DNA from: Terriglobia bacterium
GTDB lineage: Bacteria > Acidobacteriota > Terriglobia > UBA7540
Direction of reading: 5' to 3'
Length of the DNA stretch: 29,052 nucleotides
Assembly (NCBI GenBank): GCA_035490955.1
Contig: DATJKY010000177.1
Location: 1-29,052, forward strand
Made by a program: the position numbers and the translations under genes
Part shown: positions 15,858 to 21,363 of the stretch, in pieces
Layout of the letters: the number at the start of each line of letters is the position of its first letter
Position numbering within the stretch: the first letter of the stretch is position 1
Notes under the pieces: generated by a model
Seen by the model: the letters and a program-made list of their open reading frames with translations, nothing else
Told to the model about the DNA's origin: nothing
Database searches by the model: none

Positions 15858-16565
15858 TCAACCGCAATCCAAACAGGTCTCCTCAACCAGGATGGCATAA
15901 ACCTCACGGGGACCGTGCACGCCGCGGATCAGGATTTGCTCGATATCGGCGGAGCGGCTGGGACCAGTGATGAATACGATCGAGCGCCCCGACTTTTCGA
16001 AACGAGCTACCGAGGCCTGCTCGAGGACGCCCTCGAGTGATGCAAGAACCTGGTGGCGTCGGTAGAGGGCGATGTGAACTGGCGGAGCCAGGGAGGCCAG
16101 TTGACTGCCCTCGGTGATGCTGCTCAGGACCAGACTCCCCGTCTCGGCCATGACAAAGTCCACGCCGGTTATTCCAAACCTGGCCTCAAAACAACGGTCG
16201 CGAAAGCCTCGGATGGCAGCCTCACTCGCTCGTAGCGAGGGCCAAACCGCCACCTCCAGGCCCCATGCGCGAAACATGTCTTCCAGACCCAGCTGGGAGA
16301 CTAAGGGGCTCCGCGATAGAACGAGGGGAGAAGAACCCTTCAGTGTGGCCCGAAAGAACCGATCGAGTTCCTCGCGCTTCGCCACCCGGTGGGGGCTCCC
16401 GGCTACATTCCGAAGCTCTGCCTCAAACTTGGACACCAGGTTCCCCGGATCGATGGGCGGCATGACTTGACCCAGGGGCGGGAATTGGATACAACGCGGA
16501 GGCGCCTGCGGCGATCTGCCCAGCGCCTCCCGTATCCGTTCCAGCATCTCTGCTCGATCTGCCAC
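15858..16565 (-). CDS. LutC/YkgG family (LUD domain) protein
   Basis: GITGVDFVMAETGSLVL, SLAPPVHIAL, FITGPSRSADIEQILIRGVHGP signature; GTG start. Confidence 0.9.
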   Translation of the reverse strand: MADRAEMLERIREALGRSPQAPPRCIQFPPLGQVMPPIDPGNLVSKFEAELRNVAGSPHRVAKREELDRFFRATLKGSSPLVLSRSPLVSQLGLEDMFRAWGLEVAVWPSLRASEAAIRGFRDRCFEARFGITGVDFVMAETGSLVLSSITEGSQLASLAPPVHIALYRRHQVLASLEGVLEQASVARFEKSGRSIVFITGPSRSADIEQILIRGVHGPREVYAILVEETCLDCG

Positions 16566-16799: not shown

Positions 16800-17576
16800 A
16801 TGCGTCGTCCTGTGATTGCGGGTAACTGGAAAATGTACAAGGCCATTCGGGAGGCGGTGGAGTTTGTTGAGCAACTCCGGCCGCTGGTGGCGCAGTCCCT
16901 CCACTGCGACGCGGTGGTGGCTCCACCCTTCACGGCGCTGGCGGCGGTGAGCGCTGCAGCGCGGGGCAGCAACATTGCCGTGTCGGCGCAAGACTGTCAC
17001 TGGGATAAGGAAGGCGCTCACACCGGCGACGTTTCGCCGCAGATGGTCGTGGATGCTGGCTGTTCCCATGTCATTATCGGCCACTCCGAGCGTCGCCATG
17101 ACCATGGTGAAACGGACGAACAGGTGAACCGCAAGCTGAAGGCAGCCCTTGCCGCCGGCCTTGTCCCCATCGTCTGCGTAGGAGAGACGCTGGCTGAGCG
17201 CGAAGGCGGCAAGACCCACGACGTGCTGCAACGCCAGTTTCGCGGCAGCTTCGCCGGATTGACCGCGCCGGAGTTTTCCCGTATCATAGTGGGTTACGAG
17301 CCAGTTTGGGCTATCGGCACTGGACGCACGGCGACCCCAGAAATGGCGAGCCAAAGCCACGCGTGCCTGCGCCAAATGGCCTCCGAGTACTTCGGTGACG
17401 TTGTGGCCGGCGGGTTGAGAATTCTTTATGGCGGCAGCGTGAAGCCGGAGAACATCGGCGCTCTCATGGCCCAGGAAGAAATTGACGGAGCGCTGGTGGG
17501 CGGGGCTAGCCTGAAAGTGGACCCCTTCGCCGCTATTGTGAATTATCCGGGCGGCGCGGGAGCTAGCACTTCGTGA
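16800..17576 (+). CDS. tpiA: Triosephosphate isomerase
   Basis: Start at ATG 16800 after GAGGTG. Motifs AGNWKM, IIGHSERR, YEPVWAIGTG, YGGSVKP, GALVGGAS. Confidence 0.97.
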   Translation: MRRPVIAGNWKMYKAIREAVEFVEQLRPLVAQSLHCDAVVAPPFTALAAVSAAARGSNIAVSAQDCHWDKEGAHTGDVSPQMVVDAGCSHVIIGHSERRHDHGETDEQVNRKLKAALAAGLVPIVCVGETLAEREGGKTHDVLQRQFRGSFAGLTAPEFSRIIVGYEPVWAIGTGRTATPEMASQSHACLRQMASEYFGDVVAGGLRILYGGSVKPENIGALMAQEEIDGALVGGASLKVDPFAAIVNYPGGAGASTS

Positions 17577-17604: not shown

Positions 17605-17940
17605 ATGATTGTAGCTGTGACAGCGCTTCACATCCTGGTCAGCATCCTGCTCATCTTGCTGGTGCTGATCCAAGGCGGCGAGAACGTGGATATCACCGCC
17701 GCCTTCGGCGGCGTCAGCCAGGCGGCGTTTGGACCGCGGGGGGCGGTCTCCACCATGGCGAAGATTACCTGGGGGCTGGGAGCCATCTTTATAGCGACTT
17801 CGGTCACCCTGTCGGTTTGGGCCAGCCGGCAAACCTCGGGGTCGATCTTGGAGAACGCACCTAAGCAAACCACGCCGGCTTCTAAAGCACCTGCACCCAA
17901 GGCAACCGCGCCGGCTCCGCCTCAGGTGCCGAAAAAGTAG
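17605..17940 (+). CDS. secG: Preprotein translocase subunit SecG
   Basis: Two TM helices, VLIQGG..AAFGG..AFG linker and AAAGAGG RBS; conserved tpiA-secG-tRNA-Leu synteny. Confidence 0.93.
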   Translation: MIVAVTALHILVSILLILLVLIQGGENVDITAAFGGVSQAAFGPRGAVSTMAKITWGLGAIFIATSVTLSVWASRQTSGSILENAPKQTTPASKAPAPKATAPAPPQVPKK

Positions 17941-18001
17941 ATTCGTCCGCAGTCAGTGGCCTTCGCGAGTCGGAGAGTTTTGTCGTGAGTGACGGCTGAC
18001 T

Positions 18002-18070: not shown

Positions 18071-18101
18071 TCTAAGTTGACAACGGCAAGCTGCCTTTTT
18101 T

Positions 18102-18185
18102 GCGGAAGTGGCGGAATTGGCAGACGCACCAGCTTGAGGGGCTGACGCTCGCAAGAGCGTGGGGGTTCGAGTCCCCCCTTCCGCA
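18102..18185 (+). tRNA. tRNA-Leu(GAG)
   Basis: Acceptor GCGGAAG/CTTCCGC plus discriminator A, D-loop with GG, anticodon loop TTGAGGG, long variable arm CGCTC-GCAA-GAGCG, T arm GGGGG-TTCGAGT-CCCCC. CCA is not encoded (CTA), and there is one C-A mismatch at the top of the anticodon stem. Confidence 0.93.
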
Positions 18186-18215
18186 CTATATCTCGTGTTC
18201 GTTCCGTTCCTCATT

Positions 18216-19580
18216 ATGAGCACGCGACTGATGCAGGAACCGGCTGCCGAGCTTTACCACTCCTTGCACGAAGCCCGCCAGCGAACTCTCGAACTCATCG
18301 AGGATCTCACCGACGAGCAAATGATCGGGCCACGCCTGGCTATCGTCAACCCCCTACGCTGGGAGGTCGCGCACGTAGCGTGGTTCCAGGAATACTGGAT
18401 CGTGCGCCACTTCCGAAAGGAAGCGCCGACTCGGCCCGACGGGGACCGCCTCTACGATTCCGCCCGCATTGCCCACGACACCCGTTGGGATCTCCCACTT
18501 CCCTCCAAGGCTGAGACGCTTGCTTACATTCAACGCATCCTGGAACGTATCGCAGAGCACCGTCAGCCGACCGGTTCCGAGCCGGGCACGCAGGTCGATG
18601 GCTATGACGAAGCGTATTTCATTCGCCTGGCTCTCCTGCATGAATACATGCACGCGGAGGCCATCACATACACTCGTCAGACATTGGGCTATCCGGCGCC
18701 GAAGATTGGCAGCAGCTCGGAATTCGAGACCCGAGGTTCGGGGTTGGGCAAAACTGACGAGGCCTCCCGAAGCCCGGACGGTGACGCCGAGATTCCAGGC
18801 GGTACTTTCCTCCTCGGTACTACCCCAGGCACGACGTTTGTGTTTGACAACGAGCAATGGGCGCATCTCGTCACTCTAGCCCCATTTCGCATGGCGCGTA
18901 CCGCCGTGTCCAATGGGGAGTTCGCTGCTTTCGTTGAGTATGGCGGCTATAAACGGCGCGACCTTTGGACGGAGGAAGGGTGGCGATGGCGCGAGGGCGT
19001 GGGAGCTAACCATCCGGTTTACTGGCAAAGGCAAGCCGGCGGCCGCTGGCTGCGACGCAACTTCGATGAGTGGGTTCCCCTGGAAGGGCGCCTGCCCGTG
19101 CTGCACGTGAACTGGTTTGAGGCGGACGCTTACTGCCGCTGGGTCGGACGCCGGCTCCCCACCGAGGTGGAATGGGAGATGGCGGCGTGTTGCGAACCCA
19201 CGCCGGATGGCCGCAGCGTAACCGCGCGCAAGAGACTGTTTCCCTGGGGCGACGATAAGCCTAGCCCAGACCGCGCCAACCTGGACTGGCGCGCCATGGG
19301 TTCGGTGGATGTCGACGCGTTGCCGGCCGGTGACTCCGCTTTCGGCTGCCGGCAGATGATCGGCAACGTGTGGGAGTGGACGGCCACCGACTTTGGTCCC
19401 TACCCCGGCTTTGCTCCCGGTCCTTACAAGGAGTATTCCGCACCCTGGTTCGGGGATCACAAGGTGCTGCGCGGCGGCTGCTGGGTGACGCGCTCCGGCC
19501 TGATCCGCAATAACTATCGCAACTTCTATAAGCCCCACCGCCGCGACGTCTGGGCCGGCTTCCGCACCTGTGCCCTTTAG
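18216..19580 (+). CDS. senA: Selenoneine synthase SenA-like (EgtB/OvoA-family non-heme Fe enzyme; DinB plus FGE-sulfatase domains)
   Basis: GPRLAIVNPLRWEVAHVAWFQE, HEYMHAE (H-x3-H-x-E iron motif), RLPTEVEWE, GNVWEW, GFR C-terminus. The SenA call over EgtB rests on the adjacent SenB-like gene. Confidence 0.8.
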   Translation: MSTRLMQEPAAELYHSLHEARQRTLELIEDLTDEQMIGPRLAIVNPLRWEVAHVAWFQEYWIVRHFRKEAPTRPDGDRLYDSARIAHDTRWDLPLPSKAETLAYIQRILERIAEHRQPTGSEPGTQVDGYDEAYFIRLALLHEYMHAEAITYTRQTLGYPAPKIGSSSEFETRGSGLGKTDEASRSPDGDAEIPGGTFLLGTTPGTTFVFDNEQWAHLVTLAPFRMARTAVSNGEFAAFVEYGGYKRRDLWTEEGWRWREGVGANHPVYWQRQAGGRWLRRNFDEWVPLEGRLPVLHVNWFEADAYCRWVGRRLPTEVEWEMAACCEPTPDGRSVTARKRLFPWGDDKPSPDRANLDWRAMGSVDVDALPAGDSAFGCRQMIGNVWEWTATDFGPYPGFAPGPYKEYSAPWFGDHKVLRGGCWVTRSGLIRNNYRNFYKPHRRDVWAGFRTCAL

Positions 19581-19588
19581 AATGCAAC

Positions 19589-20581
19589 GTGAAGATTGGA
19601 ATCGTCACCCCCGCTCCTCCCCGCTCTCGCTACGGGAACCGGCTGACTGCCGTTCGCTGGGCTGGCATTCTCAGAAGACTTGGCCACCGAGCGAGCATCA
19701 TTCAAGCTTACGAGGGTGAAGCGTACGGTCTGCTGGTGGCCCTGCACGCGCGGCGCAGTTACCCGTCGATCCGTCGCTTTCACCTTGACCATCCAGAGTG
19801 CCCGCTGCTGGTTGCACTCACCGGAACGGACCTCTACAAAGACCTGCCAGGAAGTCGAAGAGCGCGCCAGTCCCTGGAGCTCGCCACTCGTCTGATCGTG
19901 CTTCAGCCTAAGGCCAGCGAAGCGTTGCCGCCTCATCTGCGCCCAAAGGTGCGCGTAATCTACCAGTCCGTTTCTCGGGGTTCGGGGTTCGGAATTCGGG
20001 GTCCGGGAAAGGACGCAAAACCCAATCCGAATCCTGTCTCTCGCGGCCGGAGCTTCGACGTCGTTGTGATTGGGCATCTGCGCCCGGTCAAAGACCCGTT
20101 TCGTACGGCGCGCGCGGTGCGGCAGCTTCCGTTGTCGTCTGGCGTCCGCGTCCTGCATTTGGGTGCGGCGATGGATGAAGCGATGGCCCGCCGCGCACGT
20201 GCCGAAATGAGGGTGAACCCGCGTTACCTCTGGCTGGGTGAGCAGCCACATTGGCGCGTGCAACAAATCCTCAGGAGCAGTAAGCTCTGTGTGCTCTCAT
20301 CGAAGCTGGAAGGTGGCGCCAACGTTGTATCGGAGGCGATCGTGGCCGGGGTTCCGTTGCTAGTTTCGCGGATCCCCGGTTCCATGGGCCTGCTGGGCGA
20401 GAGCTACTCCGGTTACTTCAGAGTAGGTGATACTAAGGGGCTTGCACAGCTCCTGCGCCGCACCGAGACGGACCCGTCATTGCTGAGCAAGCTTCGGTCT
20501 CACTGCAGGAAGCTTGTACCTCTTTTTGATCCCGGCGGCGAAAAGACCGCTTGGGACCGGCTGCTGCAGGAACTGATTTAA
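19589..20581 (+). CDS. senB: Selenosugar synthase SenB-like GT-B glycosyltransferase (TIGR04348-type)
   Basis: IVTPAPPRSRYGNRLTAVRWA, VALHARRS, LTGTDLY, GHLRPVKDPF and SKLEGGANVVSEA match my recollection of the TIGR04348/SenB family. GTG start 8 nt after the senA stop. Confidence 0.85.
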   Translation: MKIGIVTPAPPRSRYGNRLTAVRWAGILRRLGHRASIIQAYEGEAYGLLVALHARRSYPSIRRFHLDHPECPLLVALTGTDLYKDLPGSRRARQSLELATRLIVLQPKASEALPPHLRPKVRVIYQSVSRGSGFGIRGPGKDAKPNPNPVSRGRSFDVVVIGHLRPVKDPFRTARAVRQLPLSSGVRVLHLGAAMDEAMARRARAEMRVNPRYLWLGEQPHWRVQQILRSSKLCVLSSKLEGGANVVSEAIVAGVPLLVSRIPGSMGLLGESYSGYFRVGDTKGLAQLLRRTETDPSLLSKLRSHCRKLVPLFDPGGEKTAWDRLLQELI

Positions 20582-20817: not shown

Positions 20818-21363
20818 ATGCCGAGGCCTTCGAGCTCACCCTCTCCGCTGGTTCCGCTGAGTGACAGAGTACGCAGCGGACTCTACGCGGGGCAAAGCGG
20901 GTCGCGCGGGGTCGTCTCCCACGATCGGGCCATCATTCTTCTGATCGCCGTGTTCAAGCTGGCGAAAGGCATGCTCCTGATCGCGGCCGGAATCGGCGCT
21001 CTCAAATTGCTGCACCGTGATATGGCGAGTAGCGTCGCACACTGGATCACCGTGCTGAGAGTGGACCCCGACAACCGGCATATCAATCGATTGGTCGAAT
21101 GGCTCCTGGCGGTGAACCGTCGCAAGTTGGAAGAGATCAGCGTTGGGACGTTTTTCTATGCCTCGCTTTTTCTTACTGAGGGAACCGGGCTTGCCCTCGG
21201 CAAACGCTGGGCGGAGTACTTCACAAGCATCGTCACGGGATCGTTCATTCCGCTCGAGATATACGAACTGATTCACCATTTCAGCGTCGGCAAGCTGAGT
21301 GTGGTGGCAATCAATGGAGCGGTCGTCTTGTATTTGGTCGGCAGGCTGAAAAGGCGCCCGTGA
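20818..21363 (+). CDS. DUF2127-like membrane protein
   Basis: IAVFKLAKG...IGALKLLH, EGTGLALGKRWAEY, IPLEIYEL pattern with four TM helices. Start uncertain. Confidence 0.75.
   Translation: MPRPSSSPSPLVPLSDRVRSGLYAGQSGSRGVVSHDRAIILLIAVFKLAKGMLLIAAGIGALKLLHRDMASSVAHWITVLRVDPDNRHINRLVEWLLAVNRRKLEEISVGTFFYASLFLTEGTGLALGKRWAEYFTSIVTGSFIPLEIYELIHHFSVGKLSVVAINGAVVLYLVGRLKRRP

Follow-up and report, generated by a model that had tools for sequence, protein, structure and literature searches.

A pair of adjacent genes, senA and senB, lies at positions 18,216 to 20,581 of contig DATJKY010000177.1 (C177), which belongs to a metagenome-assembled genome (MAG) of a soil Terriglobia bacterium (Acidobacteriota; GCA_035490955.1; 907 contigs, 83% complete, 59% GC). 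The whole contig of 29,052 bp was analysed and is called the window in the following. We consider it very probable that the pair is a functional two-gene module for the synthesis of selenoneine, which is fed by an unlinked SelD and an unlinked EgtD and is likely transcribed by read-through from the housekeeping genes in front of it. The locus is real but ordinary for its phylum, and what is specific to this genome is its position behind a tRNA gene. With its partner genes the pair gives uncultured Terriglobia of soil a full genetic complement for selenoneine synthesis, and in the literature searched we found no paper on selenoneine together with Acidobacteria.

The senA-senB pair and its unlinked partners

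The senA gene (18216..19580, plus strand, ATG start, TAG stop at 19578-19580) encodes 454 residues and the senB gene (19589..20581, plus strand, GTG start) encodes 330 residues. They are separated by 8 nt (19581-19588), and both start codons agree with the aligned starts of 14 homologues from the same GTDB family. SenA scored 495.5 bits on the NCBIfam model NF041186 for selenoneine (selenoxide) synthase, where the equivalog cut-off is 420, whereas the competing models stayed below their cut-offs (EgtB TIGR03440, 335.6 against 360; ovoA_Nterm, 157 against 400). SenB, a selenosugar synthase of the GT-B type, scored 371.2 bits on TIGR04348 (equivalog cut-off 300), and the next-best family, a GT4, reached 112.5 bits against a cut-off of 400. 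The original prediction, made from the letters of the DNA, had described an EgtB-fold enzyme with an H-x3-H-x-E motif next to a TIGR04348-like glycosyltransferase and had set the comparison of these families beforehand as a refuting test. Neither protein scored best as a canonical EgtB or as an unrelated GT4, and the motif was found in SenA as H142-EYM-H146-A-E148.

By Pfam the SenA protein consists of a DinB-like N-terminal domain and an FGE-sulfatase domain. Its iron site is made up of three histidines (H53, H142, and H146), and the catalytic tyrosine and the hercynine-binding residues are present. Composite active-site motifs of 17 positions have been defined for the SenA, OvsA, and EgtB types of synthase (PMC11030361). 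We read the corresponding residues, apart from position one and both gaps, from HMMER alignments to OvsA and SenA together with the motif positions. The residues N45, E50, H53, H87, R90, H142, M145, H146, Y404, Y407, N436, F437, Y438, and R442 give the motif xNEH--HRHMHYYNFYR, in agreement with the published SenA pattern xNEH--HRHxHYYN(F/Y)(F/Y)R. It has also been reported that in all SenA proteins the thiol-binding residues Arg87 and Asp416 of EgtB are replaced by His and by Phe or Tyr, respectively (Kayrouz et al. 2022, bioRxiv 10.1101/2022.04.13.486033); the residues found here are His87 and Tyr438, and the same holds for the 14 family homologues.

SenB matched the structurally solved SenB of Variovorax paradoxus (8jjn) with 208 bits, and its residues N17, T20, K168, E241, and E249 align with N20, T23, K158, E231, and E239 of that enzyme, showing that all five are kept. 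In the V. paradoxus enzyme K158 is the catalytic residue for cleavage of the selenium-phosphorus (Se-P) bond, while N20, T23, E231, and E239 are sugar and UDP residues, and mutagenesis has shown the importance of all five (PMC10891094).

No selD-like gene was found across the window. The genome has one selD, located on contig C479 (371.7 bits), and its single in-frame TGA aligns with Cys17 of the E. coli protein; SelD therefore contains selenocysteine (Sec). With no senC on the contig of the pair, selenophosphate must come from this single housekeeping Sec-SelD. The genes selA (C234, 567.7 bits) and selB (C238, 341.4 bits) are also present. An egtD gene on C886 (300.9 bits, cut-off 290.9) adjoins an EgtB-IV-like synthase (L003:2467-3810, G000:C886), which matched 8vih with 235.7 bits and carries an NWF motif, unlike the EgtB-II type known from Chloracidobacterium. 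A supply of hercynine therefore exists, and probably ergothioneine synthesis as well. The suggestion that the pair draws on the housekeeping SelD of the cell and on an EgtD encoded elsewhere is thus supported by the genome. The genome search proposed along with it was successful for selD, selA, selB, and egtD, but not for selU (2-selenouridine synthase), for which no match above the cut-off was found in the genome, nor for tRNA-Sec.

Position behind tRNA-Leu(GAG) and probable expression of the pair

The senA gene starts 30 nt past the last base of tRNA-Leu(GAG) (18102..18186, plus strand), which is the sole tRNA that ARAGORN found on the contig and whose 3' CCA is not encoded. In front of the tRNA lies secG (17605..17940, plus strand; Pfam SecG, 60.9 bits), which adjoins tpiA and tRNA-Leu in relatives as well. 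The first gene of the array is tpiA for triosephosphate isomerase (16809..17576, plus strand; Pfam TIM, 314.8 bits over residues 141-386 of a long open reading frame (ORF)); its start is approximate, and the ORF as listed opens at 16389. After senB come a gene for a DUF2127 membrane protein (20818-21363, 130 bits) and, also downstream of the pair, an S9 peptidase gene. Both the spacing of the genes and a DUF2127-like gene in the place of a selenophosphate synthetase had been read correctly in the original prediction, as had the lack of an obvious promoter or terminator between tRNA-Leu and senA. Our pattern scan of the plus strand detected neither a promoter of the sigma-70 type nor a terminator-like site in the 29-nt spacer (18187..18215, plus strand).

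For comparison of the array we used 80 related loci, taken from MAGs of Terriglobia and of other Acidobacteriota, which also confirmed the taxonomic placement of the contig. The order tpiA-secG-tRNA-Leu(GAG) is kept in 73 of them, whereas senAB follows the tRNA in none of the 80, and the downstream genes vary from genome to genome. At the 3' end of the tRNA the sequence is GCA-CTA here (18184-18190) compared to GCA-CCA in 69 of the 73 relatives, and their tRNA 3' end is matched here with one mismatch. Seven to nine relatives have in common a strong terminator hairpin approximately 40-75 nt past the tRNA, which is absent here. Between secG and senB no terminator-like site was found on the plus strand except for a weak 5-bp stem (17961-17975), and none was found after senB. 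The absence of a terminator between the tRNA unit and senAB makes read-through from the housekeeping unit into the pair appear plausible. A TTGACA at 18077-18082 was considered as a -35 element and rejected by inspection, being too near the 5' end of the tRNA for a normal spacer.

We also considered a recent integration island and found no support for one. We looked through the window for an att-like repeat, allowing up to 3 mismatches to the tRNA-Leu 3' end, and for direct repeats downstream, and besides the tRNA obtained no more than 10-mer matches attributable to chance. The GC and GC3 (third codon position) values of senA and senB equal those of the neighbouring genes. In several relatives (L034, L042, and L054 among them) part of the tRNA 3' end is repeated about 45-55 nt further on, and these repeats resemble traces left by earlier integration at tRNA-Leu(GAG). 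In another Terriglobia MAG an egtD gene and an EgtB/SenA-like synthase gene were found directly after tpiA-secG-tRNA-Leu(GAG) on the opposite strand (L101:2517-4439), so that the same tRNA flank hosts a different thio/selenoimidazole locus there. For the locus studied here it is possible, if rather doubtful, that senAB was captured by the secG-tRNA-Leu(GAG) unit at a junction that removed both the CCA and the terminator, and that constitutive read-through is followed by tRNA 3' processing (an RNase Z-type cut with CCA addition) that both matures the tRNA and makes the senAB mRNA begin where it does. If true, this would be a natural case in which a tRNA provides the processing signal for a small-molecule pathway encoded behind it.

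A number of observations weigh against a working and expressed senAB module. The genome is only 83% complete and is spread over 907 contigs. ARAGORN did not find tRNA-Sec among the 29 tRNAs of this MAG, and the single match over the threshold of Rfam RF01852 was tRNA-Leu(UAA); we take the missing tRNA-Sec to reflect the fragmentation of the MAG rather than a true absence. A Shine-Dalgarno sequence is visible neither before senA nor before senB. Searches of sequencing runs and placement of reads produced only a few contigs of 150-320 nt with depths of 1-5. Three small runs labelled metatranscriptomic contained short senA pieces with 99-100% identity, which were flagged as probably DNA, and the sole contig bridging the tRNA to senA came from a run of unknown type. 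In SenB the EGGAHV motif, which holds E241, has become EGGANV, a change of His to Asn that keeps the equivalent of E231. Finally, SenB has a repeat-derived insertion of 10 residues in the inter-domain linker that is absent from 14 of 14 aligned family SenB proteins (GSGFGIRGPG, residues 131-140, 19979..20008, plus strand, in frame according to alignment, coordinates, and DNA). The Asn of the motif is shared within the family, as EGGAN(V/L/I/A) was found in all 15 Terriglobia family SenB sequences.

Several of these points could also be taken to mean that senAB, though its sequence is intact, is not expressed or works poorly, being a relocated remnant behind the tRNA. This would fit with the lack of a promoter-like site and of a Shine-Dalgarno sequence, with a heptamer-derived insertion unique to this SenB, and with a genomic context that no relative has and in which the CCA of the tRNA was lost at the junction. 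We nevertheless regard it as unlikely. Neither reading frame is interrupted or shortened and no catalytic residue is missing despite the insertion, and for this reason we rate a loss of function as unlikely; the insertion is in frame and sits within a linker that is hypervariable among relatives in both sequence and length. The GC3 values resemble those of the neighbours, and the missing terminator after the housekeeping unit favours expression. Moreover, 22 or more metagenome runs from soil contain the contig sequence (word share 0.89-0.96), so the allele is established in a natural population.

The insertion in SenB is built from CGGGGTT-type heptamers. Arrays of CGGGGTT/CGGAATT heptamers are dispersed over the genome (15 genome-wide), with copies in the window at 19976-20008 and at 18717-18748, and the related heptamers at the latter position lie in the variable linker of senA. 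The sequence CGGGGTTCGGGGTT has 13 occurrences compared to approximately 0.1 expected. By eye, a similar self-complementary heptamer copy is seen just upstream from the selD start (L001, about 1400-1480).

Choice of chemistry and layout in the Acidobacteriota

Above we assigned the synthase to SenA by family model and composite motif. By score the closest solved structures are of OvsA, with 321 and 312 bits, whereas V. paradoxus SenA reaches 267 bits, and a segment of approximately 54 residues (residues 329-382) is common to this SenA, OvsA, and EgtB but absent from V. paradoxus SenA. Both observations speak for an OvsA-type or other non-SenA selenoxide synthase, with ovoselenol or another selenohistidine derivative as the product. 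However, the score of V. paradoxus SenA is lower because the segment that it lacks splits the alignment, and the top structure match is OvsA-YNF, a variant of OvsA engineered so that it prefers hercynine. It has been reported that M401/Q430/A431 in OvsA versus Y/N/F in SenA decide between histidine-C5 and hercynine-C2 chemistry (PMC11030361), and the protein studied here has Y407/N436/F437 and passes the SenA equivalog cut-off. Furthermore, an OvsM-like N-methyltransferase was not found in the genome (TIGR04345, best 28.9 bits, cut-off 170), while egtD is present. Taken together, Y407/N436/F437, the full motif, the absence of OvsM, and the presence of egtD identify the synthase as SenA and not OvsA or EgtB, and make an OvsA-type enzyme very unlikely. 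The Y/N/F residues and the genomic egtD also lend indirect support to the predicted reaction of SenA, in which C2 of hercynine would be selenylated with a selenosugar.

To see how the pair is arranged in relatives we used a family sample of 100 genomes from the same GTDB family, covering 30 genera, where the flanks of senB were fetched to a length of up to 10 kb in either direction. The senB gene was present in 17 genomes from 10 of the genera, and 4 of these 17 loci were on short contigs (4.5-8.6 kb). In 15 of the 17 loci senA is directly beside senB, in one case in divergent orientation. The remaining two are a locus with a gene for a 467-residue beta-propeller protein between senA and senB (L028:7901-9304, G022) and a senB gene with no senA nearby, which is flanked by genes for a histone-deacetylase-family amidohydrolase and a GFO/IDH/MocA oxidoreductase (L029:7561-12514, G001). 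None of the genes selD, egtD, tpiA, and secG was found in the fetched flanks of the 17 loci. A single Sec-selD was present elsewhere in 16 of the 17 carriers, the exception being an 80%-complete genome, and egtD was found in 15 of 17 carriers compared to 54 of 83 non-carriers. The two senAB carriers without egtD at E <= 1e-40 are G068 (97% complete) and G056 (89% complete); a divergent egtD or a gap in the assembly could explain this, or hercynine could be taken up.

The same picture was obtained with a phylum sample of 400 high-quality genomes. Here senB was found in 30 genomes (7.5%), all 30 of which have selD, and selD was unlinked in 27 of them, bringing the unlinked cases to 44 of 47 carriers over both samples. 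In closed or large contigs of the phylum sample the distance between selD and senAB was 0.34-3.7 Mb. The three linked cases are G392, where selD is adjacent, G307, where it lies within about 5 kb, and G427, which has a selD fragment 3.3 kb away. When only senB genomes of at least 90% completeness from the two samples were considered, selD was present in 44 of 44; the genomes are related, and the count therefore does not amount to a formal test. The base rates of selD were 68 of 71 high-quality family genomes and 96 of 120 genomes in a sample from the phylum (the unpublished genome G123 of that sample was counted only toward this base rate). The presence of selD in all high-quality carriers fits a dependence of senAB on SelD.

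It is clear from both samples that the Acidobacteriota usually have senAB with no senC beside it, and the novelty claimed in the original prediction was overrated. A replacement for senC next to senAB was also considered. When all ORFs within 6 kb of senAB were clustered for 18 loci, no third gene recurred in more than 3 of them, the most recurrent neighbours (3 loci) being a transglutaminase-like protein and a two-component system, so that no such replacement is apparent. A dedicated senC is not needed because the housekeeping selD is nearly universal in the lineage, and the simplest reading is that the selenoneine module requires only senA and senB. That SenB instead takes selenium or sulfur from a compound other than the selenophosphate made by SelD, e.g. 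thiophosphate in a thiosugar route to ergothioneine, might be suggested by the contig without selD, by the unlinked selD of most carriers, and by the sugar-binding motif with one residue different, but it is highly improbable given that selD is found here and in every high-quality carrier against a phylum base rate of 80%, that no alternative donor gene recurs beside senAB, that the Se-P cleaving residue K158 is conserved, that the published enzyme was very poor with thioglucose and gave no ergothioneine, and that an EgtB-IV/EgtD route to ergothioneine is already in the genome. The new donor chemistry that had been envisaged for the case of an absent SelD is accordingly not needed.

Some of the phylum loci deviate from the usual layout. 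The sole canonical senA-senB-selD cluster of the phylum sample is in G392 (G392:C21:427306-430547, L124), and its selD is identical in score and TGA to a second copy in the same genome (G392:C20:220972-221886), which suggests that the clustered gene is a recent duplicate of the housekeeping gene. In four genomes of one acidobacterial family (f32) a second SenA-like synthase (340-350 bits, below the SenA cut-off) adjoins the housekeeping Sec-selD, far from senAB (G417:C9:991548-995634; G433:C3:131798-134228; G289:C94:62312-66325; G307:C26:82134-88588, L125), and in G307 selD, the second synthase, senA, and senB are found in one cluster. This second protein may be a further selenium-dependent synthase. 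G208 has a second senA-like gene that is a frameshifted pseudogene (L123, G208:C1:1207006-1208166). A Sec-containing SenB was considered for G106 (L122, G106:C2:159324-160256), where a TGA at codon 4 is opposite a conserved Gly, and was rejected, as a start-site or sequence problem is more likely.

Proposed function and comparison with known systems

In the two-gene module that we favour, the single unlinked SelD of the cell, itself a selenocysteine-containing protein, would provide selenophosphate, from which SenB would form a 1-selenosugar with a UDP-sugar, probably UDP-GlcNAc or UDP-Glc. EgtD of the unlinked EgtB-IV/EgtD ergothioneine locus would provide hercynine. SenA, acting as a non-haem-iron selenoxide synthase, would transfer the selenosugar onto C2 of hercynine, and the resulting selenoxide would lose its sugar by spontaneous elimination to give selenoneine. 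Transcription of senAB would occur, at least partly, by read-through from tpiA-secG-tRNA-Leu(GAG), tRNA 3' processing would determine where the senAB mRNA starts, and translation of senB may be coupled to that of senA over the 8-nt gap.

The printed definition of a sen cluster is an egtB homologue, a TIGR04348 gene, and selD within 5 kb. No selD is nearby at the locus studied here, which is thus outside the three-gene definition, while a selenophosphate synthetase is present in the genome; the pair would work like a sen cluster without being a three-gene sen biosynthetic gene cluster. Of 2,353 TIGR04348 genes, only 827 have an egtB homologue as well as selD within 5 kb, and the egtD that supplies hercynine is usually unlinked (Kayrouz et al. 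2022, bioRxiv 10.1101/2022.04.13.486033). In a 2026 survey SenB adjoins 8.1% of these synthases and SenC 6.3%. Loci with senAB and no senC are therefore implied in print by the published counts, though they are not discussed. It follows for genome mining that searches which start from selD or require all three genes miss nearly all such loci, since the working unit appears to be senA-senB, with selenophosphate and hercynine coming from unlinked housekeeping genes. This bears on estimates of the producers of organoselenium antioxidants in soil and adds no new chemistry.

The closest known system in gene order is senABC of V. paradoxus DSM 30034 (structures 8k5i for SenA; 8jjn and 8fbx for SenB), which has the same senA-senB order, a SenA composite motif and SenB catalytic residues like those found here, and an equally unlinked egtD. 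It differs in three respects. There is no senC (selD) within 5 kb of the pair studied here or on the 29-kb contig; SenA has 454 residues with the segment of approximately 54 residues, compared to 416-427 residues in V. paradoxus where the segment is absent; and SenB has EGGANV and the 10-residue linker insertion where the V. paradoxus protein has EGGAHV.

The ovs genes of Marinobacter vinifirmus and Halomonas utahensis, which can be chromosomally separated (PMC11030361), provide in OvsA the nearest solved homologue of the synthase (312-321 bits). OvsA has M/Q/A at the deciding positions and acts with OvsM on free histidine, whereas here Y/N/F is found, OvsM is absent, and egtD is present. The type I EgtB of Mycolicibacterium thermoresistibile (4x8b) has the same DinB and FGE-sulfatase fold, 3-His site, catalytic Tyr, and hercynine-binding residues, and it is set apart by Arg87 and Asp416 in the places of His87 and Tyr438, in keeping with the EgtB model score of 335.6 against 360.

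Co-transcription of tpiA-secG-tRNA with senAB had been called unusual in the original prediction. For the first part this does not hold, as the joining of secG to tRNA-Leu(GAG) is classic: in E. coli secG-leuU is a polycistronic transcript with secG followed by tRNA-Leu(GAG), and a Rho-independent terminator lies after leuU (PMC2241853). The extension into senAB, on the other hand, is particular to this genome. Where E. coli and several Terriglobia relatives have a terminator after the tRNA, the present array has none, and two protein genes begin 29 nt on.

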